Shown here: in pieces, positions 3,055 to 57,992 of the stretch
Numbering within the stretch: the first letter of the stretch is position 1
Layout of the letters: the number at the start of each line of letters is the position of its first letter
Assembly: GCA_028286685.1 (NCBI GenBank)
Contig: JAQBRA010000006.1
Coordinates: forward strand, 1,993 to 65,992
Reading direction: 5' to 3'
Length of the DNA: 64,000 nt
DNA from: Candidatus Adlerbacteria bacterium
Lineage (GTDB): Bacteria; Patescibacteriota; Minisyncoccia; Phycocordibacterales; SBAW01
Position numbers and translations under genes: made by a program
The notes under the pieces: model-generated
Database searches by the model: none
The model's input: the letters and a program-made list of their open reading frames with translations, nothing else
Told to the model about the DNA's origin: nothing

Positions 3055-4611
3055 ATGAAATCAGCATTATTCACTGCTCACAAAAAAGCAGCCATTTCCT
3101 TGTTTTTGGCCGCCGCGAGCGCAGCGATTCTTCTTGTGGCTCTTCCGGCGCTCGCCGACAGCTCGGCAAATAGCAACTTCGAAAACCCGCCCTACGTGCC
3201 GGGGAATATAAACGGCCAGGACGGCTGGAGCAAAACAGGCGCGTACGATGCTGCGGTCACCAGTTCCTTTGGCGTGCCCGACTTCGGCAACCAGAGCCTG
3301 CGCATCTCAAACGCGGTTACCTCAAGCTCGTTCGCTGACCAGACCTTCGCCAAGCCTACTGCAGACGGCGCGGGCGAAGCCGACTCGACCTCGGGCGGAT
3401 TCGCAACCGGTACTCTGGCAAGCCACTTCCAGGCAGAGTTTGACCTCAGATCAGTGCAGCTCATGCAGCAGCCGGGACTCTCTATATCCGTTTCCCCCGA
3501 CCGGGGCGACGGCTCGCGCATGAGCTATCTTAGATTCGAGGACCAAGCCGACGGCATCCACGTGTTCTTCAACGATGCGCAGGGCTCGAGCACCTCTGCC
3601 GACTTTGTCGAGACCGACATAGCGACACTCAGCCGCGCCACGACGCACACCATAGGGTTCTCCATGGACTTCGTAAACGGGCCCTCCAACGATGTAGTTG
3701 AAATATATATCGACGGGGCGCTCGCCCATACCGGCACGAGCTGGGAAAACTATTACCGCTTCGATCCGGAGTCAGCTGCAGAGCAAAGCCCCCGCATCGT
3801 AAAGACCCTGCTCTTTAGAGCGGCGGGCACTGCTGCGACCTCAACGCAGGGCTTGGGCTACCTTATCGACAACCTGGAGATGCTCGCCTCAGGCTCAGCC
3901 CAGGGCGGTGGGAATGGGGACGTAACGGTAACCATAAGCAAATATATTGACGGCACTATGGCAACCTCCGGCAGCGCGCAGTCCCTGGCCTTCCCCATGA
4001 ACGCGAGCTGGAACGCGCAGAACATCGGCTCAAGCTCGGGGAGCTTCACGCTCTCGCCGCAGGGCTCCAATAGCCCGAACGCATACCAGGCTATCACTGC
4101 GGACATGACCTCGGGCGCGTCGTATTCGGTCGCCGAGGACACGAGCGGCGCCAATGTCGCCCAGAACTGCAGCGCAGGCAAGCCTTACTCGCTCGTCGGC
4201 TACACCACAGGTACCAGCTCGGCTGCCGCAGCGGCTGCAACGCCCAGCCTCACGCCGCCCAGCTTCTCCAACCTGACCGGAGACCAGTATGTCATCGTAT
4301 GGAACCATGCCTGCACCGACACCGGCACTACGACGCCGCCAACCACCGGCAACCCTAACGGCGCCTCCGTCGACCAGAACGGCTCGACCGTGCGCGCGGG
4401 CGGGCACCTGGACTTCGTAGGACGCAACTTCGGCCACGAGCAGGACGTTGCCATCTCGCTTGGCGGCTCCGTGATACGCACGGTGCATGCCGACGGCGGA
4501 GGCAACTTCTCTACCGGCTCGATGACCGCGCCCGCAACGCCGGGCACGTACCAGTACGAGTTTAAGGACTCGGGACATACGGTCATCGCCACCATTACGG
4601 TAGTGCCATAA
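3055..4611 (+). CDS. secreted hypothetical protein (beta-rich lectin/Ig-like domains)
   Basis: ATG preceded by an AT-rich leader. Signal peptide (LFLAAASAAILLVALPALA), a long Ser/Thr/Gly/Asn-rich beta-type sequence, a Thr/Pro-rich linker (TTPPTTGNP) and no C-terminal anchor. Confidence 0.6.
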   Translation: MKSALFTAHKKAAISLFLAAASAAILLVALPALADSSANSNFENPPYVPGNINGQDGWSKTGAYDAAVTSSFGVPDFGNQSLRISNAVTSSSFADQTFAKPTADGAGEADSTSGGFATGTLASHFQAEFDLRSVQLMQQPGLSISVSPDRGDGSRMSYLRFEDQADGIHVFFNDAQGSSTSADFVETDIATLSRATTHTIGFSMDFVNGPSNDVVEIYIDGALAHTGTSWENYYRFDPESAAEQSPRIVKTLLFRAAGTAATSTQGLGYLIDNLEMLASGSAQGGGNGDVTVTISKYIDGTMATSGSAQSLAFPMNASWNAQNIGSSSGSFTLSPQGSNSPNAYQAITADMTSGASYSVAEDTSGANVAQNCSAGKPYSLVGYTTGTSSAAAAAATPSLTPPSFSNLTGDQYVIVWNHACTDTGTTTPPTTGNPNGASVDQNGSTVRAGGHLDFVGRNFGHEQDVAISLGGSVIRTVHADGGGNFSTGSMTAPATPGTYQYEFKDSGHTVIATITVVP

Positions 4612-7337: not shown

Positions 7338-7937
7338 CTAGCGCAGCTCCGCATACACCACCAGCCGGCGGTCGTATTCTTTCTTATCCTTGATCCATGC
7401 CCCGTCGCAGGTAACCAGGTGCAGGTATGCGCCGCCTTTCTTATTAAACAGCTCATCAAGCGGGACCTCGGCCGCCGCATAGGACTCAACGCGTACCACT
7501 ACGAACCTAAGCGGCGTCGACGATGCCGTATCTACGTATATTTCATCCCCCGGCGCAAGATCGCCCAGATGCTTGAAGACGCCGTCAAGCGCCAATGCGT
7601 TGTCGACATGGCCGTCCATAACCGCGCTGCCCTCAAATCCGGGCACGGTGCCGTACTTGTACCAGCCGGCATCGGTAAAGTTGCCGGGCGTTGCCATATT
7701 GCCCGCTTCATTAATGCCCACCTGCTTTACGTGCGCATCAATACCGAGCGCGGGTATGCGCAGGCGCTCGGGCAAGTCGCCAGGTTCTGCCTGGCGTGCG
7801 GGCGCTGCGGCTGCCAGGGTGCTGGAAGCCATTTCTATATCAGGCGCATACCATACCGCACGCGCAAGCGTGGTAGCGAATACCACGCTTGCGGCTGCGG
7901 TTATGAGAGCGACGATAAGCCGCGGGCTTACGCGCAT
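7338..7937 (-). CDS. sortase family transpeptidase
   Basis: N-terminal TM anchor, catalytic His context (MDGHVD), the TLxTC-type active-site motif LHLVTCDG and a downstream Arg (RRLVV). Confidence 0.8.
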   Translation of the reverse strand: MRVSPRLIVALITAAASVVFATTLARAVWYAPDIEMASSTLAAAAPARQAEPGDLPERLRIPALGIDAHVKQVGINEAGNMATPGNFTDAGWYKYGTVPGFEGSAVMDGHVDNALALDGVFKHLGDLAPGDEIYVDTASSTPLRFVVVRVESYAAAEVPLDELFNKKGGAYLHLVTCDGAWIKDKKEYDRRLVVYAELR

Positions 7938-14356: not shown

Positions 14357-15877
14357 ATGAACTCATCACTTATCAGCGCAGACACTGTTTATAAAAAGAC
14401 GCTGGCAGCTTTTACGATCGCAGGCATGCTCCTGGCGTCGACTCCGGTCATGGCCGACAGCTCGATAACTGTCTCGCTCTCCTCTCCTGCATCGCAGGAG
14501 ATATCGGGAGATTTTGACATTACGGCCACCTTCTCGGCCGACGTGGTCGACTTCGACGCGAGCGACGTGCACCCTACCCTGGGGCAGATAAAGAACTTCC
14601 AGGCAATGAGCTCGAGTACGTACACCTTTACGTTCGACCCGGACGACTTGCAGTCGCCACAGGAAGTGCACGTCGATATCAGCGGCGATCGGGTGCACGA
14701 CCAAAACGGCAACACCAACCAGGCGTCCGCACAGCTCTCGCGCATGTTTATTCCGGGCGGTACCTCTACCTCGACCGGCACCACGACCGACAATGGAGGC
14801 GGCACGGGTACCACCACTCCTCCAGGCGGCACCGGGACTACCACGCCCCCGGGCGACACGGGCACTACCACCCCTCCTAACAATGGAACAAGCACTCTTC
14901 CCACAAACGGAGGAGGCAGCGCTTCCTCGACCATAGCAATAGAGATCACCAGCGGTCCCCAAGAGGGCGAGCTGGTCCACGCTACCAGCGCCATCTTTGC
15001 CTTTACCTCGACCGCCTCGACCACCGAGTGCAAGTTTGGCGACTTGGGCGGCTTCCAGAACTGCGACAGCCTGACGGCAGGCCCATACGGTCTCTACGAG
15101 GGGACGGACGTGTTCCAGATCCGCGGCACCAACCTGGACGGCGCCTCGAGCACCGTCACGCGCACCTTCATGGTCGACTTCCCGCCGGTGCTGACGCTCG
15201 GCTCTATCGCCACCTCTAGCGATGACAAGCCCGCCAGTATCACCTTCGGCTCCTCCGAGGCCGGCACTACGACGGTTGCCGGCGGCTGCTCTACGGCCTC
15301 CACCACCGTTGCAGTAGGTACCAGCACCATCGAGCTCGTCCCGACAGCTGAGCCCGGCACCCATACCTGCACGCTTACCGTAACCGACGCTTCGGGCGGC
15401 GTAAGCAACACGCTCACCATCCTGCCGGAGTTCACTATTGCAGCACCTGCATCAAACAATGAGGACGAGGAGGAGGGCCGCCGCTCTTCCGGCGGCAGCT
15501 TCCGCCGCGCTATTCCGGTAGTAGTAGTTGAGGGAGACTCGGGCTCCTCTGAACCTCTCTCCGACTTCCCTACCGTCATCACCGACACCTCTGGCGGCGT
15601 AGGCGGCGAGGGTGACAACACTTCCGGCTTCCCGGGCGCCGGGCCCGTAGTTGTGGGCGGCTCCGCGCTTGCCCCGGGCGAGGTCCTGGGCGAGGAAGTC
15701 GAGCCTGCTACGACCACCGGCACTACAGTAACCGGTACTATCGGCGCAGGCGCCGCTGCAGCAGGCAGCGCAGCCGTGGTCCCGCCGTGGGCCTGGTTTC
15801 TCCTGGCGCTCATACTCTTGGCAGCCTTGCTCTATTGGGCATACCGCCGGAGCGTAGCCTACGAGACCACTCGATAA
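14357..15877 (+). CDS. cell-surface protein: signal peptide, Ig-like beta domains, Thr/Pro/Gly repeats, C-terminal TM anchor
   Basis: Signal peptide (AAFTIAGMLLASTPVMA), repeated GTGTTTPP units, and a C-terminal hydrophobic helix plus basic tail (VVPPWAWFLLALILLAALLYWAYRRSVAYETTR). No LPxTG motif. Confidence 0.6.
   Translation: MNSSLISADTVYKKTLAAFTIAGMLLASTPVMADSSITVSLSSPASQEISGDFDITATFSADVVDFDASDVHPTLGQIKNFQAMSSSTYTFTFDPDDLQSPQEVHVDISGDRVHDQNGNTNQASAQLSRMFIPGGTSTSTGTTTDNGGGTGTTTPPGGTGTTTPPGDTGTTTPPNNGTSTLPTNGGGSASSTIAIEITSGPQEGELVHATSAIFAFTSTASTTECKFGDLGGFQNCDSLTAGPYGLYEGTDVFQIRGTNLDGASSTVTRTFMVDFPPVLTLGSIATSSDDKPASITFGSSEAGTTTVAGGCSTASTTVAVGTSTIELVPTAEPGTHTCTLTVTDASGGVSNTLTILPEFTIAAPASNNEDEEEGRRSSGGSFRRAIPVVVVEGDSGSSEPLSDFPTVITDTSGGVGGEGDNTSGFPGAGPVVVGGSALAPGEVLGEEVEPATTTGTTVTGTIGAGAAAAGSAAVVPPWAWFLLALILLAALLYWAYRRSVAYETTR
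14795..14880. repeat. in-frame 27-bp tandem repeat (x3, imperfect) encoding GTGTTTPPG units
   Basis: ggcggcacgggtaccaccactcctcca / ggcggcaccgggactaccacgcccccg / ggcgacacgggcactaccacccctcct. Confidence 0.6.
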
Positions 15878-32353: not shown

Positions 32354-39205
<6,852 letters not shown>

Positions 39206-47438: not shown

Positions 47439-48359
47439 CTAGTTAGTTTTTATCTTTGCCTTGCCTTTCGCATCAGCGCCCAAATGCTCGACGGCCTTCA
47501 TAACGACCGGGAGCATGTCTTCGTAAAAATTGAGATCCAGCGCATCCTGGAGCTTGAACCAGCGCGCGTCGTCGAGACCTCCCTTCTTGGCCAGTTCCAC
47601 CTCGCTAAAGGGCGACTTGGCCAGGAAGTATATGACATGCTTGCGCTTCTTGCCGGTTGCCGGATCGGAAGCGACGTACTCGTTCTCGCCGAGCCGCATC
47701 TCCGGCTCGATGTTGAGGCCTATCTCCTCCTTTATCTTGCGGACTACGCCGGCCTCCGGGGTTTCCTCCGGGGTCAGTTTGCCCTTAGACAGGGTCCAGT
47801 GGCCGAAAATATCGTGCACGAGAGCCAAGTAGAGCTCATTGCCGCTGCGGGCATAGACCACCGCGCCCACCAGGCGCTCCTGCGGCATCTCCTCCCACGG
47901 GACCTCCTTCTTCTTTTTGGAGATCTCGTCCTTGCCGGGCTCGCCCAGCTCCTTGTATACGGCGCCCAAGACGCCGTTAACGAAGCGGCCCGAGTTTTCC
48001 CCGCCGAAGTGCTTGGCAAGCTCGATAGCCTCGTTAATGGCTACTTTTGCCGGGACTTTTTCCCTGTCGGCAAACAAAAGCTCATAGAGCCCGAGCCGCA
48101 GAACATTGCGGTCTACCGGAGCGATACGCTCCAGAGGCCACTCAGGAGCAGCCTTGCCGATAACCAAATCGAGGTCCGCGCAGCGGGCCAGCGTGCCCCG
48201 CAAAAGCTCCTCCATAAAGGGATGGTCGCCGCCCTGGGGCGTAAACTCAGTCGCATTGCGCACCAGGGTCTCCAGGCACGCCTCTTGAGACAAGTGGCGG
48301 AAGTCCCACTCAAAGAGGGTCTGCAGTACTACCGATCTGGAAAGGTGCCTGTTGGCCAT
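47439..48359 (-). CDS. nusB: NusB-like antitermination factor fused to a C-terminal Nudix hydrolase domain
   Basis: N-terminal half has NusB-family motifs (DRNVLRLGLYELLF, NEAIELAKHFGGENSGRFVNGVLGAV). C-terminal half has the Nudix box GHWTLSKGKLTPEETPEAGVVRKIKEEIG. Start at the internal ATG MANRHLS. Confidence 0.65.
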   Translation of the reverse strand: MANRHLSRSVVLQTLFEWDFRHLSQEACLETLVRNATEFTPQGGDHPFMEELLRGTLARCADLDLVIGKAAPEWPLERIAPVDRNVLRLGLYELLFADREKVPAKVAINEAIELAKHFGGENSGRFVNGVLGAVYKELGEPGKDEISKKKKEVPWEEMPQERLVGAVVYARSGNELYLALVHDIFGHWTLSKGKLTPEETPEAGVVRKIKEEIGLNIEPEMRLGENEYVASDPATGKKRKHVIYFLAKSPFSEVELAKKGGLDDARWFKLQDALDLNFYEDMLPVVMKAVEHLGADAKGKAKIKTN

Positions 48360-48439
48360 TATGTGTAGAGCAATCGGGTGAACAGAACGGAACGAAACAG
48401 ATTCAAGAGCCAGGAGCTGAAGGCCCAACCGGGGCCGGA

Positions 48440-49060: not shown

Positions 49061-49660
49061 TTATACCTTGCTTACGGTATAAGCGTCAATCTTACAAAAG
49101 GTCTTCCGGTGAAGCTCACAGAGGCCGAATTTCCCTATTGCCGCGCGATGTTTGGCCGTGCCGTAGCCCTTGTGGATAGCAAAGCCGTACTCCGGGTACT
49201 GCACGGCCAGAGTTCGCATGAGCCTATCGCGCCTAACCTTGGCCACTATCGAGGCCAGCGATATGACCGGCTCGAGCGCGTCCCCTTTTATGATTGTTTC
49301 CTGCTTATACTCGGGCGGCGCCACCAAGAGCCCGTCGAGCTTTACAAAAGAAGTCTCCGGGTCGGCCAAGTGGCGCACCCCGCTCCATACCCCGCGGCGT
49401 ACCGCCTTGGTTATGCCGCGCGTATCTATGTAGAGCGCCGAGGAAAGCCGCGCACAGAGCTTGATATCGCCCGCTTTTGCCCGGGCCAGCGCCTCTTTAT
49501 ATATCTCCTCGCGCTTTTCTTCGGTGAGCTGCTTGGAATCGTTAATGCCCGGGAAAGCCTTTCTGATATCAAAGCGCTTGGGCACGGCCACGACGCCGAC
49601 CGAAACCGGTCCGGCCAAAGGCCCACGCCCCGCCTCGTCTACGCCAACCAGCCACTGCAT
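49061..49660 (-). CDS. rnhB: ribonuclease HII
   Basis: VGVDEAGRGPLAGPVSVGVV N-terminal catalytic motif. Confidence 0.9.
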   Translation of the reverse strand: MQWLVGVDEAGRGPLAGPVSVGVVAVPKRFDIRKAFPGINDSKQLTEEKREEIYKEALARAKAGDIKLCARLSSALYIDTRGITKAVRRGVWSGVRHLADPETSFVKLDGLLVAPPEYKQETIIKGDALEPVISLASIVAKVRRDRLMRTLAVQYPEYGFAIHKGYGTAKHRAAIGKFGLCELHRKTFCKIDAYTVSKV

Positions 49661-49715
49661 TAGGGCATTGTATCAGGGGTGGTTCAAGACCGGCACCCGA
49701 GAGTATACTCAGACT

Positions 49716-52670
49716 ATGTCCGCCCCGTTTGTCCCGTTGCGCGTCCACTCCCATTACTCGCTCCTTAAGGCGCTGCCGAAAATCCCCGACCTCGTTAAGA
49801 AAGCCAAGGCCGAAGGCTGTACTGCGCTTGCGCTTACCGACTTGGGTAACCTCTACGGCGCCATCGAATTTTACAAAGAGTGCCAGGGCGCCGGCATCAA
49901 GCCCATTATCGGGCTGGAATCGGTTATGGAAGGCGGCAAGCATATTCTGCTGTACGCCAAGAACCGCGCAGGCTACCAGAACCTGCTAAAGCTCGTTACC
50001 AAGTCGCACCTCAATTCCCCCGGCAACCCGATGCTCACGAGCGCCATGCTCGAAGAGCATGGCGAGGGCCTCATAACCATCGACCCCAAGGAAACCGATA
50101 TGCCGATGCGCGAAGTGTTTTATATCGAGCCGGACGACCGCCGCGCCTGGGAGACGCTGCGCGCGATTGAGAACCGCGGACCGGTCGAAACCGGCGACCT
50201 CGATGAGGACGAAGACGACTTCTCCTTCCCCACCGCGGCATACATGGAAGAGCGCTACGGCGCCCCGGCAATGCAAAAAACTACTGATCTGGCCGCTGAA
50301 TGCGAGCTCGATCTTAACCTCGGCAAATGGTTTTTCCCCGACATCGAAATACCCGAAGGCACGAACTACGACGAAGAGCTGCGCCGCCTGGTTGAAGAAG
50401 GGCTCAAGCGCCGTTTTATCCAGGAGACCCCTGAGGCGCGGACGCGCATCGAGTACGAGTACGAGATTATTACAAAAAAAGGTTACTCGCCGTACTTCCT
50501 GGTAGTGGCCGACCTGTTGGCGTTTGCCCGCGCAAACAAGATACTGACTACGATCCGCGGCTCGGTCGCCGGCTCGCTGACCACGTACGTCTTGGGCATT
50601 ACCAACGTAAACCCGTTGGCCTACAAGCTCCCCTTCGAGCGCTTTCTTAACCCGGAGCGCCCGTCGGCACCCGACATCGACATGGACTACGCCGACAACC
50701 GGCGCGACGAGGTTATTGAATATGCCCGCCGCAAGTACGGCGAGGACAAGGTGGCGCAGATCGGTACCTTCGGCACCATGCTCGCGCGCGGCGTCGTTCG
50801 CGACGTCGCGCGCGCACTCGGTTACCCGTACGGCCTGGGCGACGCTATCGCAAAAGAAATTCCCATGGGCTCGCAGGGCTTTGCCATGACGCTTGAGCGC
50901 GCCATGAACGAGAACCCGGAGCTCGCCAAGATGTACAAGAAAGACGCGCAGGTGCGCGAGATTATCGACCTCGGCCAAAAGATTGAAGGCTGTGCGCGCC
51001 ACGTGGGCGTCCATGCCGCGGGCGTCGTCATCTCGCCCACCCCGCTGACCGACTACACCCCGCTGCAGCTCGACCCGAAAGGCGGCAAGCTTATTAGCCA
51101 GTACGACATGTATTCGATCGATGAGAACAATGCCGGACTCCTCAAGTTCGACTTTCTCGGCATCCGCAACCTGGCCATACTCGCCCACTCGGTCGAGCTG
51201 GTGGAAAAGACCCGCGGCATCACTATTGATATTGAAAATGTTCCGGTAGACGACACTAAAACCTTTGAGATGCTTGCGCGCGGCGAAACGGAAGGCCTCT
51301 TCCAGCTCAACGGCTCGGGCATGACGCGCTTCCTTAAAGAGCTGAAGCCCTCGACCATCCACGACATCAATGCGATGGTGGCGCTATACCGCCCGGGCCC
51401 GATGGAAACGATCCCGCAGTACATCGAGCGCAAGCACAACCCGGCAATGGTTTCCTACGCCGACCCGCGTATGAAGGATTATCTGGAGTTCTCTCACGGC
51501 GTGCTGGTGTACCAAGACGACGTGCTTCTGACCGCTATTACCTTGGGCGGCTACAGCTGGCTTGAAGCGGACAAGCTGCGCAAGGCGATGGGCAAGAAAA
51601 TTCCCGAAGTTATGGCCGCCGAAAAAGAAAAGCTCATCAAGGGCTTTATCGAGTACGGCAAATTGCGGCCACAGCTCGCAGAAAAGCTCTGGAAACTGAT
51701 TGAGCCGTTTGCGGCATACGGATTTAACAAGGCGCACGCTGCCTCCTACGGCAAGGTGGCGTACCAAACCGCCTACATGAAGGCCAACTTCCCCGTGGAG
51801 TATATGAGCGCGGTTCTGACCGCTGAGGCCGGCGACATCGAAACCGTGTCGACCATGGTTGGCGAGTGCAAGCGCATGGGCCTGCCGGTTTTGGCACCCG
51901 ATGTTAACGAGAGCTTTGGCGACTTTACGGTGATACTTGCCGATAACGCAGAGGAAAAGGACGCGATCCGCTTCGGCCTTTACTCTATTAAGAACTTCGG
52001 CAGCGGGGTGGCAGATTCCATCATCGCCGAGCGCAAGACGGGAGGACCTTTCGTTACCCTTTCGGACTTCCTGACCCGGGTCAAAGACAACGGCCTTAAC
52101 AAGAAGGGCCTGGAGTCGCTTATTAAGTGCGGAGCGCTCGACTCGTTGGGCGAGCGCGGGCAGATGTTTGCCCACATAGAGAAGCTCCTGCAGTACCATC
52201 GCGATGCGGCAGCCGACCACCAACACGAATCATTGTTTGCGGGCGTGGCAGAAATGAGCCAGCTGACCCTGCCCAAAGCAGAGCCTGCCCGCATGGACGA
52301 CAAGCTTATCTGGGAGAAGGAATTGCTGGGCCTGTATGTCTCCGGGCACCCTCTGGATAAATTCAAAGAGAAGCTCGACAAGCGCCCGATGAACCTGGCC
52401 CAGATTAAGGAGCGCAGTTACCCGGGCACCACTACGGTTATTGCCGGCATGGTTGAGGACCTGCGCGTACTGCTTACCAAGAACGGCGACCAGATGGCCT
52501 TCCTCAAGCTCGCGGATTTTTCGGGCTCGGTCGAAGCGGTCGTGTTTCCGAAAAGCTTTGTCGAATACAAGGCCATTTTGCGCCCCGAAGCCTGCATCGC
52601 CATTAAGGGCCGGGTCTCCAACCGCAACGGCGAGTTTTCAATCGTGACCGAAGCGCTCAAGGCATTATAA
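49716..52670 (+). CDS. dnaE: DNA polymerase III alpha subunit (short form)
   Basis: PHP domain (RVHSHYSLLKA), the polymerase core (GVHAAGVVIS, FDFLGIRNL) and an OB domain. 984 aa from ATG 49716, shorter than the roughly 1160 aa of E. coli-type DnaE. Confidence 0.85.
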   Translation: MSAPFVPLRVHSHYSLLKALPKIPDLVKKAKAEGCTALALTDLGNLYGAIEFYKECQGAGIKPIIGLESVMEGGKHILLYAKNRAGYQNLLKLVTKSHLNSPGNPMLTSAMLEEHGEGLITIDPKETDMPMREVFYIEPDDRRAWETLRAIENRGPVETGDLDEDEDDFSFPTAAYMEERYGAPAMQKTTDLAAECELDLNLGKWFFPDIEIPEGTNYDEELRRLVEEGLKRRFIQETPEARTRIEYEYEIITKKGYSPYFLVVADLLAFARANKILTTIRGSVAGSLTTYVLGITNVNPLAYKLPFERFLNPERPSAPDIDMDYADNRRDEVIEYARRKYGEDKVAQIGTFGTMLARGVVRDVARALGYPYGLGDAIAKEIPMGSQGFAMTLERAMNENPELAKMYKKDAQVREIIDLGQKIEGCARHVGVHAAGVVISPTPLTDYTPLQLDPKGGKLISQYDMYSIDENNAGLLKFDFLGIRNLAILAHSVELVEKTRGITIDIENVPVDDTKTFEMLARGETEGLFQLNGSGMTRFLKELKPSTIHDINAMVALYRPGPMETIPQYIERKHNPAMVSYADPRMKDYLEFSHGVLVYQDDVLLTAITLGGYSWLEADKLRKAMGKKIPEVMAAEKEKLIKGFIEYGKLRPQLAEKLWKLIEPFAAYGFNKAHAASYGKVAYQTAYMKANFPVEYMSAVLTAEAGDIETVSTMVGECKRMGLPVLAPDVNESFGDFTVILADNAEEKDAIRFGLYSIKNFGSGVADSIIAERKTGGPFVTLSDFLTRVKDNGLNKKGLESLIKCGALDSLGERGQMFAHIEKLLQYHRDAAADHQHESLFAGVAEMSQLTLPKAEPARMDDKLIWEKELLGLYVSGHPLDKFKEKLDKRPMNLAQIKERSYPGTTTVIAGMVEDLRVLLTKNGDQMAFLKLADFSGSVEAVVFPKSFVEYKAILRPEACIAIKGRVSNRNGEFSIVTEALKAL

Positions 52671-52681
52671 ACACCATTGAC

Positions 52682-52710
52682 TTGACTCTATTTGCATTGG
52701 GGGGTATAAT
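52682..52710 (+). promoter_or_regulatory. near-consensus sigma-70 promoter TTGACT-17-TATAAT
   Basis: TTGACT at 52682-52687, a 17-nt spacer and TATAAT at 52705-52710; predicted TSS near 52717. Confidence 0.55.
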
Positions 52711-52750
52711 TACTCTTAGCTGAACTTGTGTGTGGACCTGGGAGGATCGC

Positions 52751-52963
52751 ATGAATGACCGCCCTACCGCTGGCTCCCGCTTGTTGCTGGAGCCGCAGCC
52801 GCCGCTCTCGTCAACTTCCTCAAACGAAGCCCTGGCCTCGTCCAGCTCGCATTCAACTGAGTGCGTCGACACAGACCCGGCCGACCTCGGCAGCCTGGCC
52901 GAGAAGAACTTTAGCCGGCACCTGCAGACCGGCAAAGGCAAACACCGCGTTATTGCAGGATAA
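52751..52963 (+). CDS. small acidic Ser/Pro-rich hypothetical protein (70 aa)
   Basis: SD GGGAGGA at 52740-52746 and ATG at 52751, directly downstream of the consensus promoter. Encodes MNDRPTAGSRLLLEPQPPLSSTSSNE...KGKHRVIAG with no TM helix. Confidence 0.35.
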   Translation: MNDRPTAGSRLLLEPQPPLSSTSSNEALASSSSHSTECVDTDPADLGSLAEKNFSRHLQTGKGKHRVIAG

Positions 52964-53010
52964 GCTCTCGCCGCCAACCTTCGGGAAGGCGGCGATTTCT
53001 TTTTCTCCGG

Positions 53011-53039
53011 TTGACCAAGAGGCGCAACAGCGCTACGAT
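53011..53039 (+). promoter_or_regulatory. candidate sigma-70 promoter TTGACC-17-TACGAT for the thrS leader
   Basis: TTGACC at 53011-53016, a 17-nt spacer and TACGAT at 53034-53039. Confidence 0.35.
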
Positions 53040-53046
53040 TGGAGCG

Positions 53047-53215
53047 TTGGAAGTTGCCTTGGCTACCACCCAGGGTCGTCCCGAGCCGCAAGGCCTAATC
53101 CGACGCAACAAAGTGCCCCGCCGGAATGGCGAGGGAAACTAGGTGGAACCGCGGTCCAAGATCGTCCTAGTGAGTGCACGAATGTCGTGCCTTCACTAGG
53201 GCGTTTTTTATTTTA
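53047..53215 (+). promoter_or_regulatory. T-box riboswitch leader of thrS (specifier ACC-A; antiterminator T-box; intrinsic terminator)
   Basis: The T-box consensus-like AAACUAGGUGGAACCGCGG (about 53137-53154) lies just before the terminator hairpin cctagtga...tcactagg-gcg-TTTTTTATTTT (53165-53214). A candidate specifier GCUACCACCC holds the Thr codon ACC followed by A. The 5' boundary is uncertain; the leader may begin at the 52717 TSS. Confidence 0.55.
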
Positions 53216-53233
53216 CAAACCAATATCATTACC

Positions 53234-54442
53234 ATGGAAGAACGAGACCATCGCGTCATAGGAAAAGAGCTTGACCTGTTTACCTTCTCGGACCTCGTGG
53301 GCCCCGGGCTCCCTTTATGGACCCCCAAGGGCACCACGTTCCGGGGCGAGATAGACAAATTTATCTGGGAGATGCGCGAAGCCCGCGGCTACGAGAAGGT
53401 CACTATCCCCCACATCACTAAGCGCGATCTGTACGAGACTTCCGGCCACTGGGAGAAGTTTGCCGAGGACCTCTTTAAGGTGACATCGCGCGAGGGCCGC
53501 GAGTACGCGATGAAGCCCATGAACTGCCCGCACCATACGCAGATTTTCGACCGCAAGCCGCACAGCTACCGCGATATGCCCCAGCGCTACGCCGAGACCA
53601 CCATGGTCTACCGCGACGAGCAGTCGGGCGAGCTGGGCGGGCTTACCCGCGTGCTTTCCATTACCCAGGACGACGCGCACGTATTCTGCCGCACCACGCA
53701 GGTGCGCGAGGAGTTCCTGAAAATTTGGGACATCGTCGACACATTCTACAAGCAGTTCGGCTTTACGCTGCGCGTGCGCCTCTCCTTCCGCGACCCAGCA
53801 GCGCCCGAGAAGTACCTGGGCACGCCCGAAATCTGGGACCGGGCCGAAGGCGAGCTGCGCTCGATTGCGCAAGAGCGCGGCGCCGACACCATTGAAGGCC
53901 CGGGCGAGGCGGCGCTCTACGGCCCCAAGCTCGACTTTATGGCCGCCAATGCGGCAGGCCGCGAGTGGCAGGTGGCAACGATCCAGCTCGACCTGAATAT
54001 CCCTGAGCGCTTTGATCTGACCTGCACCAACGAGAAGGGCGAGAAGGAGCGCATTGTCATGATCCATGCGGCTATTGCCGGCTCTTTGGAGCGCTGCGCG
54101 GCCATACTTATCGAGCACTATGGAGGTGCCTTCCCTACCTGGCTTTCCCCGGTGCAGGCAAAGATACTGCCTATCGGAGAGACCCATGCCGCCTTTGCAC
54201 AAGAAACGCTTGAGCGGCTCAAGGAGGCGGGCATACGCGCCGAGATAGACCAGAGCGGCGAGAGCCTGGGCAAGAAGATCCGCGAAGCGAAGACTCAGAA
54301 GGTTCCCTATCTCCTGATTATCGGCGACGCGGAGGTTGCCGCCGGCACCGCGACGCTCGAGGGCCGCGAGGGCAAGATCGGCGCGCTCCCGGTCGCTGAA
54401 ATAGCCGCCAAGCTTGCTGAAGAGATAAAGAGCCGCGCATAG
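53234..54442 (+). CDS. thrS: threonyl-tRNA synthetase, catalytic + anticodon-binding domains only (no N-terminal TGS/editing domains)
   Basis: Starts at MEERDHRVIGKELDLFTF..., which aligns to the start of the class II catalytic core of ThrRS (E. coli residue about 242). Motifs 2 and 3 are present with a C-terminal anticodon-binding domain; 402 aa. Confidence 0.85.
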   Translation: MEERDHRVIGKELDLFTFSDLVGPGLPLWTPKGTTFRGEIDKFIWEMREARGYEKVTIPHITKRDLYETSGHWEKFAEDLFKVTSREGREYAMKPMNCPHHTQIFDRKPHSYRDMPQRYAETTMVYRDEQSGELGGLTRVLSITQDDAHVFCRTTQVREEFLKIWDIVDTFYKQFGFTLRVRLSFRDPAAPEKYLGTPEIWDRAEGELRSIAQERGADTIEGPGEAALYGPKLDFMAANAAGREWQVATIQLDLNIPERFDLTCTNEKGEKERIVMIHAAIAGSLERCAAILIEHYGGAFPTWLSPVQAKILPIGETHAAFAQETLERLKEAGIRAEIDQSGESLGKKIREAKTQKVPYLLIIGDAEVAAGTATLEGREGKIGALPVAEIAAKLAEEIKSRA

Positions 54443-54526: not shown

Positions 54527-55489
54527 TTACTTAGAGCGCTTTGCGATCTGGGAAGCGATGAAGGGGTCAATGCCCTCTTCAACCAACGGAGCCGAGGCGG
54601 CTACGGAGTGAGTCTTGGGAGCGTGAGTAGTGTGTGCTGCGACCGAGCCGGAAGCCGTGCCGAAGAGGAAGCCGTTAAGGTAAGCGACTGCCTTGTTCTG
54701 AACGCGCTTGACGACGACGAGGTACGCTGCGCCGAGGCACCACAGTACGAGGAAGGTCCAGTAGAGAACCTCGCCCATCGGGCCCAAATCAAGACCGGTG
54801 TACGGAGCCTGGGAAAGGGTGATGTACGGAGTGGTGTTGTAAGCGATCGGGGCTACGTAGCAGTCGTTGTAGTTGTAACCCTGATTGTAGTCCTGGCCGT
54901 AGTTGTAATCGTACTCGTTGTAACCATAATCCTGCTGATTGTAGCCGTAGCCCTGGTTGTAGCTATTGCCGGACTGGCCGTAGCAATCCTGGTAACGCTC
55001 TTCCTGCTTCTTCTGGTTGTTGAAGGAGTTGCTGACCTTGACGCTATTGTCGACAATGCTGTTGTCTACATAGCTCTGGTTGCAGGAGTTGTTAACGCAG
55101 GTGTTGGTATTAACAGTCGTATTAGACTGAGCGGGAGTCTGGTAGCCCATTGCGTAACGGAATGCAGTGTTTGCTGCCGAGCCACCGAACGAAGGCATCG
55201 AGAATCCGCCACCAGTAGAACCGGAGCTGCCGTAGTCGCCGTATCCGCCAGATTCCTCGTAGGAGTCAGGGTAGTAGTTGGTCTCGGTGTCCGGGTAGTA
55301 GTTGGTCTCAGTGTCCGGGTAGTAGTTGGTGTAAGTGTCCGGGTAGTAGTTGTAACCGGAATCCATAGGGGCATCCCATACGCCGATATTATCCTCGCCA
55401 TCTGCCTTAACGAACGAGACCGGGAGGGCAAGCAACACAAGCGCTATGAGCGCGACGCTGCCGTTCCGAAGAGTGTTGAAAGTAGTCAT
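54527..55489 (-). CDS. Tyr/Asn/Gly-rich repeat protein with signal peptide and a late TM segment preceded by APYTG
   Basis: Signal peptide from the internal ATG (MTTFNTLRNGSVALIALVLLALPVSFVKA). Carries NYYPDTETNYYPDTETNYYPD repeats and a long Y/N/Q/G low-complexity region, then APYTGLDLGPMGE, a TM helix (VLYWTFLVLWCLGAAYLVVV), KRVQNK and a roughly 50-aa tail. Confidence 0.5.
   Translation of the reverse strand: MTTFNTLRNGSVALIALVLLALPVSFVKADGEDNIGVWDAPMDSGYNYYPDTYTNYYPDTETNYYPDTETNYYPDSYEESGGYGDYGSSGSTGGGFSMPSFGGSAANTAFRYAMGYQTPAQSNTTVNTNTCVNNSCNQSYVDNSIVDNSVKVSNSFNNQKKQEERYQDCYGQSGNSYNQGYGYNQQDYGYNEYDYNYGQDYNQGYNYNDCYVAPIAYNTTPYITLSQAPYTGLDLGPMGEVLYWTFLVLWCLGAAYLVVVKRVQNKAVAYLNGFLFGTASGSVAAHTTHAPKTHSVAASAPLVEEGIDPFIASQIAKRSK
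55268..55356. repeat. in-frame 21-bp tandem repeat (about 4 copies) encoding YYPDTET/N units
   Basis: gtgtccgggtagtagttggtctc repeated head-to-tail with point variants (minus strand coding). Confidence 0.6.
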
Positions 55490-55674
55490 ATACTTGTTTT
55501 GCTTGATAATTATAAACGCTTGCACCTTAACAGCTACTAATAATTCTGTCAATACCTCACGCTCCGGGCTCAACCGACTGGTTAAGCTCAGAGAATGAGG
55601 GATTACCAAGCTTTTCAGCTGAGTAATCCCGGGTGCAAAACGGCGCGTACGCCGCTTTGCTTTGCAACCAAACC

Positions 55675-56091
55675 TCAGACCGGACCACAGATCTTTGTAC
55701 CCCGCGGATCCGGCATCTTGGTTTCCCCGTTGCAACGATAGTATTCGTTCATCGGAGCGCCGGCCGGGCGGGTGACAATTTCCTTAGGCTCGCCTTTGGG
55801 CCGCTTCGCCTCGGTGCCCGCAGGTGCCGACGGCGGAACTTGGGATTTCGCCTCGTACTTTCTGCAACTGTCGACTACCTGGTCCCATTTCTGGGACGGC
55901 AAGCTGTCGAAGTAAGAGACGATCGTCTCTTTCTTCTCCGCTCCCGTGTTGATCATATGCTTGATCTTCTGGGCGCGGTATTTGCAGAGAGTCATCACGG
56001 TTTCGAACCGCGACGGGGCTTTGGTTTGAGCATAAGCGGGAGCGGACAGGGCCGCAAACGCTACTGCCAGAATGATAAGGTACTTGTGCAT
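55675..56091 (-). CDS. small secreted hypothetical protein
   Basis: Signal peptide MHKYLIILAVAFAALSAPAYA; 138 aa with a Cys pair near the C-terminus. Confidence 0.4.
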   Translation of the reverse strand: MHKYLIILAVAFAALSAPAYAQTKAPSRFETVMTLCKYRAQKIKHMINTGAEKKETIVSYFDSLPSQKWDQVVDSCRKYEAKSQVPPSAPAGTEAKRPKGEPKEIVTRPAGAPMNEYYRCNGETKMPDPRGTKICGPV

Positions 56092-57404: not shown

Positions 57405-57992
57405 TTACCGGGTGTAGGCCCCCTCAAAGTTTGCCGTTACGACGTAGCGGTCGGATTTGCTCCCGAAGTTGTCGCAAGTAACCAGACTCAGGTATTTGCC
57501 ATCTGCCGGGAGTTCTACCACATCTTCCTCTGCATTAGCAAGCCTGACCCCGACTACTTTGTAGCGATATTCGATGCCGGCCGAGTACACGCTTATAACC
57601 TGTCCGGTCTTTAGTTTCTCTATCCCGTTAAAAGTTTTATAGGCCTGATTGTTCACTATCGGCAAATGCGACGAGTGGCCGAAGATGGCGACGGTGCCGT
57701 CTTGGCCGAGCAGGGCCGAGGTGGGCCAGCGCATGGCGGCCTTATCCACAGCGGCGTTAAGCGTATCAAGGTCAGTTGATTGCGGGTTGAGCACCTCGGA
57801 ATCAAGCCCGATATCGAGCGCCACGACGCGCACCGGCAGCTCGTGCGTATCGGCGGGTATCTCCTCTGGGACAGGAACAGCCGCCTGAGTCTCGCCGCCG
57901 CGCGGCTCGGGCAAGGCGTCTACCATCGCCAAAAAGACGTAGGTCAGGCCGAACAGGAACATGAATGTAAATGCGAAAGAAAATGCGCGCAT
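57405..57992 (-). CDS. sortase family transpeptidase (second copy)
   Basis: N-terminal TM anchor, His in the IAIFGHSS context, active-site LSLVTCDN (TLxTC) and a downstream Arg (DRYVV). Confidence 0.8.
   Translation of the reverse strand: MRAFSFAFTFMFLFGLTYVFLAMVDALPEPRGGETQAAVPVPEEIPADTHELPVRVVALDIGLDSEVLNPQSTDLDTLNAAVDKAAMRWPTSALLGQDGTVAIFGHSSHLPIVNNQAYKTFNGIEKLKTGQVISVYSAGIEYRYKVVGVRLANAEEDVVELPADGKYLSLVTCDNFGSKSDRYVVTANFEGAYTR

Follow-up and report, generated by a model that had tools for sequence, protein, structure and literature searches.

Probable loss in place of the editing domain from the housekeeping threonyl-tRNA synthetase of a Candidatus Adlerbacteria bacterium, with a predicted compact T-box leader

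Introduction

Can a bacterium decode its threonine codons with a threonyl-tRNA synthetase (ThrRS) that has lost its editing domain? Removal of Ser-tRNA-Thr by ThrRS is a textbook quality-control step, and to our knowledge exceptions have so far been found in nature only in organelles, in Mollicutes whose domains are degenerate, and in archaea that carry the function on a separate protein. The question is raised by thrS in a 64,000-nucleotide (nt) stretch of contig JAQBRA010000006.1 (Candidatus Adlerbacteria bacterium, assembly GCA_028286685.1), hereafter the window, in which the gene encodes a ThrRS of 402 aa in place of about 640. A sequence-only reading of this DNA had proposed a loss of proofreading, possibly adaptive or reductive, and here we ask whether the short gene is authentic, how it arose and what it would mean for translation.

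ThrRS discriminates against valine by means of an active-site zinc ion and misactivates serine (PMC7373986, PMC11295145), and loss of ThrRS editing in E. coli results in serine toxicity and protein misfolding (PMC4041444). Enzymes without editing are already known, namely crenarchaeal ThrRS-cat, yeast mitochondrial MST1, Mycoplasma ThrRS and the impaired T2 of Anabaena (PMC7373986, PMC4787780). In the literature searched, we found no description of ThrRS truncation in Patescibacteria, the candidate phyla radiation (CPR), nor of T-boxes in CPR bacteria; PMC5424206 was considered as a precedent and set aside, as it concerns an archaeal-type tRNA-Thr-ED next to SepCysS.

Results

Domain make-up of the short ThrRS

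The gene and its two domains are as follows.
53234 (ATG)–54442 (TAG), plus strand: thrS, 402-aa ThrRS lacking both N1 (TGS) and N2 (editing)
53474–54121, plus strand: class II catalytic core, Pfam tRNA-synt_2b (PF00587), aa 81–296, 141 bits
54155–54421, plus strand: anticodon-binding domain, Pfam HGTP_anticodon (PF03129), aa 308–396, 67.8 bits

These two domains were the only Pfam matches in the protein, with no match to PF02824 (TGS) or PF07973 (tRNA_SAD). TGS (N1) and tRNA_SAD/N2 are typical of the bacterial ThrRS family and are not required for aminoacylation. The protein scored 477.5 bits with the NCBIfam thrS equivalog TIGR00418 (cut-off 383.65) while matching only positions 170–564 of the 565 in the profile, and it reached 187 bits with the archaeal NCBIfam model NF003068, below the cut-off of 484. 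When compared with solved structures, its best matches in the PDB were bacterial ThrRS, and residues 3–401 aligned with E. coli ThrRS 241–635 (1QF6), in agreement with the sequence-only reading that the open reading frame (ORF) begins where the catalytic domain does. Cys98, His149 and His278 are the equivalents of the E. coli zinc ligands C334, H385 and H511, and the other active-site residues were also present, comprising Arg127 (motif 2), Asp147 (the Thr-binding Asp383 of E. coli), Tyr229, Lys232, Gln246, Gln251 and Arg287 (motif 3). We confirmed that the window ThrRS is a bacterial-type enzyme reduced to a catalytic core and an anticodon-binding domain.

The N-terminal domains were not hidden by annotation, as had also been argued from the sequence. 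The gene could be extended upstream in frame by 20 codons at most, to a GTG at 53174, within the terminator hairpin described below, and the protein extended from this GTG gained no additional Pfam domain. A six-frame tblastn search of the 64-kb window with N2 from two close relatives detected no N2 sequence (best E = 0.1–1).

The same architecture has been made in the laboratory. Engineered E. coli deltaN-ThrRS (residues 242–642; PDB entries 1EVK, 1EVL, 1FYF and 1KOG) has the same domain content and near-identical boundaries, such that residues 4–401 of the window enzyme align with residues 1–394 of the 401-residue deltaN chain (1EVK/1EVL, E = 4.7e-97). The two enzymes have the same zinc triad and threonine-binding residues, and overall identity to deltaN and to the cores of solved ThrRS is about 41–47%. 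deltaN-ThrRS reportedly aminoacylates tRNA-Thr and also makes Ser-tRNA-Thr. deltaN is a laboratory truncation, whereas the window form arose in nature, is fixed across entire clades and evolves under purifying selection.

Conservation and probable repeated loss among relatives

A protein identical to the window ThrRS is deposited as MDB5225783.1 (Candidatus Adlerbacteria bacterium, annotated 'thrZ'). The 120 best clusters at 90% identity, which were 77–100% identical to the window ThrRS and derived from NCBI, JGI, ENA and Logan assemblies, were 395–416 aa long except for one of 460 aa, and contained PF00587 and PF03129 alone. Ratios of nonsynonymous to synonymous substitution (dN/dS, Nei-Gojobori) between window thrS and six relatives were 0.06–0.14, with dS of about 0.9–1.7. 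None of the zinc ligands or other active-site residues checked varied among 125 short-form sequences, and Cys98, His149, His278, Arg127, Arg287 and Asp147 were likewise invariant in 58 longer ThrRS sequences. These data support the short ThrRS as a clade-wide state under purifying selection and not a one-off.

We compared ThrRS architectures across 160 thrS loci (L numbers) obtained by scanning GTDB species genomes and JGI metagenomes, to which L161–L164, L167 and L168 were added by exact protein look-up. Bacteroidota ThrRS comprise TGS, tRNA_SAD, core and anticodon-binding domain (about 641–660 aa, core 48–50% identical), with both TGS and tRNA_SAD detected in L038. Most Patescibacteria ThrRS have tRNA_SAD, core and anticodon-binding domain without TGS (about 575–620 aa); loci with N2 but no TGS are found among L003, L005, L006, L008–L033, L084 and L087–L112. 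PF07973 was present in L006, L084, L011 and L003, and the editing motifs RHxLAHLLA and CRGGH (HxxxH, CxxxH) were intact in N2-bearing Patescibacteria ThrRS. The short form, core plus anticodon-binding domain of about 402–411 aa, occurred at 16 of the loci examined, namely the window, L001, L002, L004, L007 (Kaiserbacteria), L081–L083, L085, L089 and the six loci from the protein look-up. The distribution supports a stepwise loss: TGS is missing from nearly all Patescibacteria ThrRS, and N2 was lost afterwards.

Short forms fell into two groups in neighbour-joining trees of the core alignment. Group A, which includes the window, was monophyletic in 92% of bootstrap replicates and group B (L004, L007 and L089) in 86.5%, while all short forms formed one clade in 0 of 200 replicates. 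Between the two groups lie N2-bearing genes (L021, L088 and L008, then L003, L005, L006, L009 and L084), which, together with the lack of joint monophyly, indicates that N2 was probably deleted independently at least twice, in the window's group and in the Kaiserbacteria-containing group. The reductive loss suggested from the sequence is therefore best read as clade-wide, stepwise and recurrent. Other ThrRS clusters of about 400–425 aa, at 38–47% identity and on long contigs, emerged from an exhaustive HMMER search of 1.84 billion representatives, so N-terminal truncation recurs more widely.

Group A carries four specific substitutions (F461L, D472N, L474A and F521C in E. coli numbering), two of which adjoin the active-site residues Y462 and R520. 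They were rejected as a general requirement for function without N2, since group B lacks them, and no compensatory change shared by the short forms is evident from the sequences.

Several loci only resembled short forms and were excluded. L022 contains a masked N-run, L014, L018 and others end at contig edges, in L045 N2 is still encoded upstream, and L037 is frameshifted. In L043 and L056 (Gracilibacteria-type), in-frame TGA codons in a thrS that is otherwise conserved mimic truncation under translation table 11, and these genomes probably use genetic code 25 (UGA = Gly).

Position of thrS downstream of dnaE

The conserved upstream neighbour of thrS in Patescibacteria is dnaE.
49461–52670, plus strand: dnaE (DNA polymerase III alpha); translation probably begins downstream of the TTG at 49461

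In 31 loci dnaE was followed by thrS, whether the gene was short or N2-bearing. The gap between the dnaE stop codon and short thrS was 20–40 nt in L082, L083, L004 and L007, and the window spacer is 563 nt long and holds two units. This conserved dnaE-adjacent position identifies the short gene as the positional ortholog of housekeeping thrS and argues against an extra 'thrZ'; the 5' part of the housekeeping gene was probably deleted in place.

A compact T-box leader upstream of thrS

The sequence-only reading held that the region upstream of thrS is a T-box leader rather than coding sequence, and the elements that we identified agree with it.
53011–53039, plus strand: promoter-like TTGACC-17-TACGAT, a consensus match only; the transcript would start at about 53046
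53044–53106, plus strand: Stem I-like domain, with basal helix 53044–53051/53099–53106, specifier hairpin and a second hairpin at about 53075–53095
53056–53076, plus strand: specifier hairpin, 7-bp stem and 7-nt loop CUACCAC
53065–53067, plus strand: Thr codon ACC in the specifier loop, followed by A at 53068
53116–53135, plus strand: Stem III hairpin
53137–53153, plus strand: T-box sequence AACUAGGUGGAACCGCG, UGGA bulge at 53144–53147
53141–53153, plus strand: T-box motif AGGUGGAACCGCG
53139–53170, plus strand: antiterminator helix
53163–53214, plus strand: intrinsic terminator, hairpin 53163–53203 and U-run 53204–53214

The 5' arm of the terminator overlaps the 3' arm of the antiterminator, such that the two folds are mutually exclusive. 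The leader ends 20 nt before the ATG, leaving ThrRS no room for an N-terminal extension.

The Rfam T-box model RF00230 matched 53107–53169 at 29.7 bits, below its gathering score of 93, with E-values of 1e-4 in a 701-nt search and 0.0098 in the whole window; at the gathering threshold the whole window gave no match, and the T-box appeared only in E-value mode. The match covered model positions 155–216 only (Stem III, T-box sequence and antiterminator), and the alignment passed over Stem I. The K-turn, internal specifier loop and distal platform of a canonical Stem I were not detected in the window leader. Among relatives, L084 and L103 aligned with the full model, though weakly.

The element GGUGGAACC(G/A)CG precedes thrS in nine other Patescibacteria loci, and a hairpin of 5–7 bp with the loop (C/A)(U/C)ACCA(A/C) was present in 9 of the 10 element-bearing loci, window included. 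In each of these nine, the hairpin lies upstream of thrS, and ACC and the following purine sit in its terminal loop and not in a canonical internal specifier loop. A compact variant is common to window positions 53044–53214, L003, L006, L027, L084, L103, L105, L111 and L112, with the specifier hairpin enclosed by an outer helix AGAGAUUG...CUAAUCUG. In an alignment of nine sequences, 84% of cells in the proposed helices were paired compared with 30–44% in slid controls, and 24–31 pairs showed compensatory changes, values reached by 0 of 500 shuffles. The specifier hairpin was 96% paired with compensatory changes in five of six pairs; pairing reached 98% and 89% in the antiterminator helices and 89% and 90% in those of the terminator. 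The discriminator of a Patescibacteria tRNA-Thr(GGU) is U73, which is complementary to the A in the UGGA bulge. From its covarying structure, we judge the leader to be a genuine T-box of atypical, compact design and a predicted threonine attenuator.

As in the thrS and thrZ T-boxes of Firmicutes, the window leader contains the 14-mer and its UGGN bulge, has a purine after the Thr codon and can fold either as antiterminator or as terminator; no canonical Stem I was detected in it. The ultrashort Stem I of actinobacterial ileS T-boxes, with the codon in the terminal loop of a short hairpin, offers a possible analogue, although those act on translation and the window leader ends in an intrinsic terminator. 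All copies of the compact variant score far below the Rfam gathering threshold and would therefore be missed by standard annotation; a T-box with its specifier in a terminal loop is documented here in a phylum where T-boxes fall below the Rfam detection threshold.

Among the 16 short-form loci, the T-box was found in the window only, and it was absent from the closest relatives (83–90% identical; L081, L161–L164, L167 and L168), where small unrelated ORFs occupy the spacer. In L161 (2960–3003), L162, L164, L167 and L168, a -10-like TAGTAT lies about 9 nt before the thrS ATG with no Shine-Dalgarno sequence, which suggests that the short-form thrS mRNA of the closest relatives may be leaderless or nearly so.

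Search for editing proteins

No tRNA_SAD, tRNA-Thr_ED, DTD or YbaK domain was detected in the window ORFs scanned. NF011500 matched only the anticodon-binding domain of the window ThrRS (61.6 bits compared with 362). When the closely related N2 domain of L037 was searched against 5.8 billion proteins, the matches were all ThrRS fragments of 148–316 aa, mostly annotated 'partial'. The two matches checked, P0201 and P0198 on long contigs, were rejected as stand-alone N2 proteins because they are pieces of frameshifted thrS beside dnaE. In L165 (3001–4737), L166 (3001–4816) and L037 (3446–5159), thrS is broken by frameshifts into two or three ORFs, through either assembly errors or pseudogenisation. 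Such genes leave 'N2-only' fragments in databases that might be mistaken for free-standing editing proteins.

Discussion

A probable housekeeping enzyme predicted to lack cis editing

We consider it highly probable that the window gene encodes a complete and functional housekeeping ThrRS from which N2 and the linker helix were deleted in place, that editing in cis was thereby lost, and that the gene is under T-box control. The TGS domain would have been lost first, followed by N2 with the linker helix. The conserved active site and the purifying selection point to an enzyme that makes Thr-tRNA-Thr: threonine would be activated through the pentacoordinate active-site zinc, valine excluded and tRNA-Thr charged. 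Serine would also be misactivated and, without N2, Ser-tRNA-Thr would not be hydrolysed in cis. The resulting serine mistranslation might be tolerated, as in Mycoplasma, Ser-AMP might be hydrolysed in the synthetic site, as in MST1, or Ser-tRNA-Thr might be cleared by a candidate trans-editing factor, such that these bacteria would either tolerate Ser-for-Thr errors or proofread by a route other than N2. In the leader, uncharged tRNA-Thr(GGU) would pair with ACC in the loop of the specifier hairpin, and the U73-CCA end of the tRNA with the UGGA bulge, stabilising the antiterminator over the terminator at 53163–53214.

Several points weigh against this interpretation. A Shine-Dalgarno sequence is absent before the start codon of window thrS. 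The T-box is missing from all 15 other short-form loci, so its regulatory role in the window is deduced from structural intactness alone. The count of two losses relies on simple neighbour-joining bootstraps, and a second full-length thrS or a trans-editing protein may lie outside the window.

Known systems cover parts of this arrangement. MST1 (3UGQ, 3UH0 and 4EO4; 245 bits) is likewise a bacterial-type ThrRS that naturally has no editing domain, but it is organellar, has a short N-terminal extension (460 aa) and serves a few proteins, whereas the window enzyme would serve the whole cellular proteome. MST1 reportedly depends on its synthetic site to hydrolyse Ser-AMP before transfer. The crenarchaeal ThrRS-cat of Sulfolobus and Aeropyrum (3A31/3A32; 174 bits to 3A31) is archaeal-type, unlike the window ThrRS, and its partner ThrRS-ed is a DTD-like deacylase with its own anticodon-binding domain, of which no counterpart was found in the window. 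Mycoplasma ThrRS and Anabaena T2 are cases in which bacterial post-transfer editing was naturally lost or impaired, as proposed here, and Mycoplasma resembles Patescibacteria in its reduced genomes and host-dependent lifestyles (PMC7373986, PMC4041444, PMC4787780). Both, however, keep the editing domain in mutated form, whereas in the window ThrRS it is physically deleted, and Anabaena has a second, accurate ThrRS copy that edits in trans.

Alternative explanations

Three other accounts of the short gene would change its meaning. Mis-assembly, a frameshift or a miscalled start could account for the missing N-terminal part, and frameshift-split thrS does occur in some metagenome assemblies (L165, L166 and L037). 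This reading is effectively refuted by the same 402-aa length and MEERDH start in independent assemblies from many samples, the strong purifying selection, the structured leader whose terminator stops 20 nt before the ATG, and the lack of an N2-coding remnant in any frame of the window. The gene could instead be an authentic but accessory paralog, a second copy resembling thrZ that is induced through its T-box when tRNA-Thr charging falls, with a full-length thrS elsewhere doing the routine work and possibly editing in trans, in the way that T1 edits for T2 in Anabaena. The label 'thrZ' given by NCBI/Prokka would fit, as would the T-box, since B. subtilis thrZ is typically controlled in this way; some large genomes (e.g., a Myxococcaceae metagenome-assembled genome) encode ThrRS of about 413 aa that are probably second copies, and ThrRS duplication in which one copy is impaired in editing has precedent (PMC4787780). 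Yet the gene occupies the housekeeping position beside dnaE conserved in 31 Patescibacteria loci, most short-form loci have no T-box, the genomes are very small, and those of L001, L002, L004 and L007 gave no second locus among the 80 best thrS loci in a scan that was not exhaustive. We regard an accessory role as very improbable.

A split system is harder to dismiss but still rather unlikely. In this case the short ThrRS would be joined by a free-standing deacylase encoded elsewhere, as in Crenarchaeota, for which a bacterial N2/AlaX-like, ProXp-ST-like or DTD-like ThrRS-ed protein would be a candidate, and fidelity would be maintained. There is precedent in archaeal shortened thrS with ThrRS-ed, broad-specificity ProXp-ST1/ST2 and AlaX factors are known (PMC7373986, PMC11295145), and the 64-kb window is less than 10% of the genome. 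The scanned window ORFs held no editing-type domain, the six frames no N2 similarity and the database search only ThrRS fragments, and two independent N2 losses would each have needed a pre-existing backup. Returning to an enzyme that lost cis editing by deletion in place, its most novel form, in which the Adlerbacteria-containing and Kaiserbacteria-containing lineages independently dropped ThrRS proofreading altogether with no trans-acting substitute, is a possibility that we hold tentatively and with considerable doubt. Were it true, widespread environmental bacteria would read Thr codons with serine errors left uncorrected, giving a naturally 'statistical' proteome outside Mollicutes and organelles, and small proteomes and an episymbiotic life might make the serine errors tolerable.

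What is added here to the known exceptions is bacterial lineages in which the editing domain was physically deleted from the housekeeping gene, apparently at least twice, with the rest of the enzyme constrained. Close relatives that retain N2 serve as natural controls, and the system is suited to asking what level of aminoacylation proofreading is needed in a minimal cell. It might further reveal whether pre-transfer correction in the synthetic site can replace a dedicated editing domain, and whether further trans-editing factors exist in CPR bacteria.

Other features of the window

A small unit lies between dnaE and the T-box.
52682–53006, plus strand: small unit with promoter, Shine-Dalgarno sequence, ORF and terminator
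52682–52710, plus strand: near-consensus promoter TTGACT-17-TATAAT, 11 of 12 consensus matches
52751–52963, plus strand: 70-aa ORF preceded by the Shine-Dalgarno sequence GGGAGGA, no Pfam match
52967–53006, plus strand: terminator of the small unit

The dnaE–thrS spacers of L161–L164, L167 and L168 also contained one or two small, unrelated ORFs, each with its own promoter and terminator, and some spacer ORFs of close relatives carried CxC...CPxC motifs. Within dnaE, ARAGORN called an antisense tRNA-Glu(CTC) at 50153–50240 (minus strand), which is probably a false positive, and no other tRNAs in the window.

Two gene fusions were encoded on the minus strand. A single 2283-aa ORF at 32354–39205 joins rpoB and rpoC, with Rpb2 domains 1–7 followed in frame by Rpb1 domains 1–5 (Pfam), and a 329-aa ORF at 47439–48428 combines an N-terminal NusB with a C-terminal NUDIX hydrolase domain. 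Two sortase-domain proteins (7338–7937 and 57405–57992, both minus strand) and large low-complexity or Ig-like secreted proteins (3055–4611, 14357–15877 and 54527–55735) make up a cell-surface repertoire typical of CPR bacteria.

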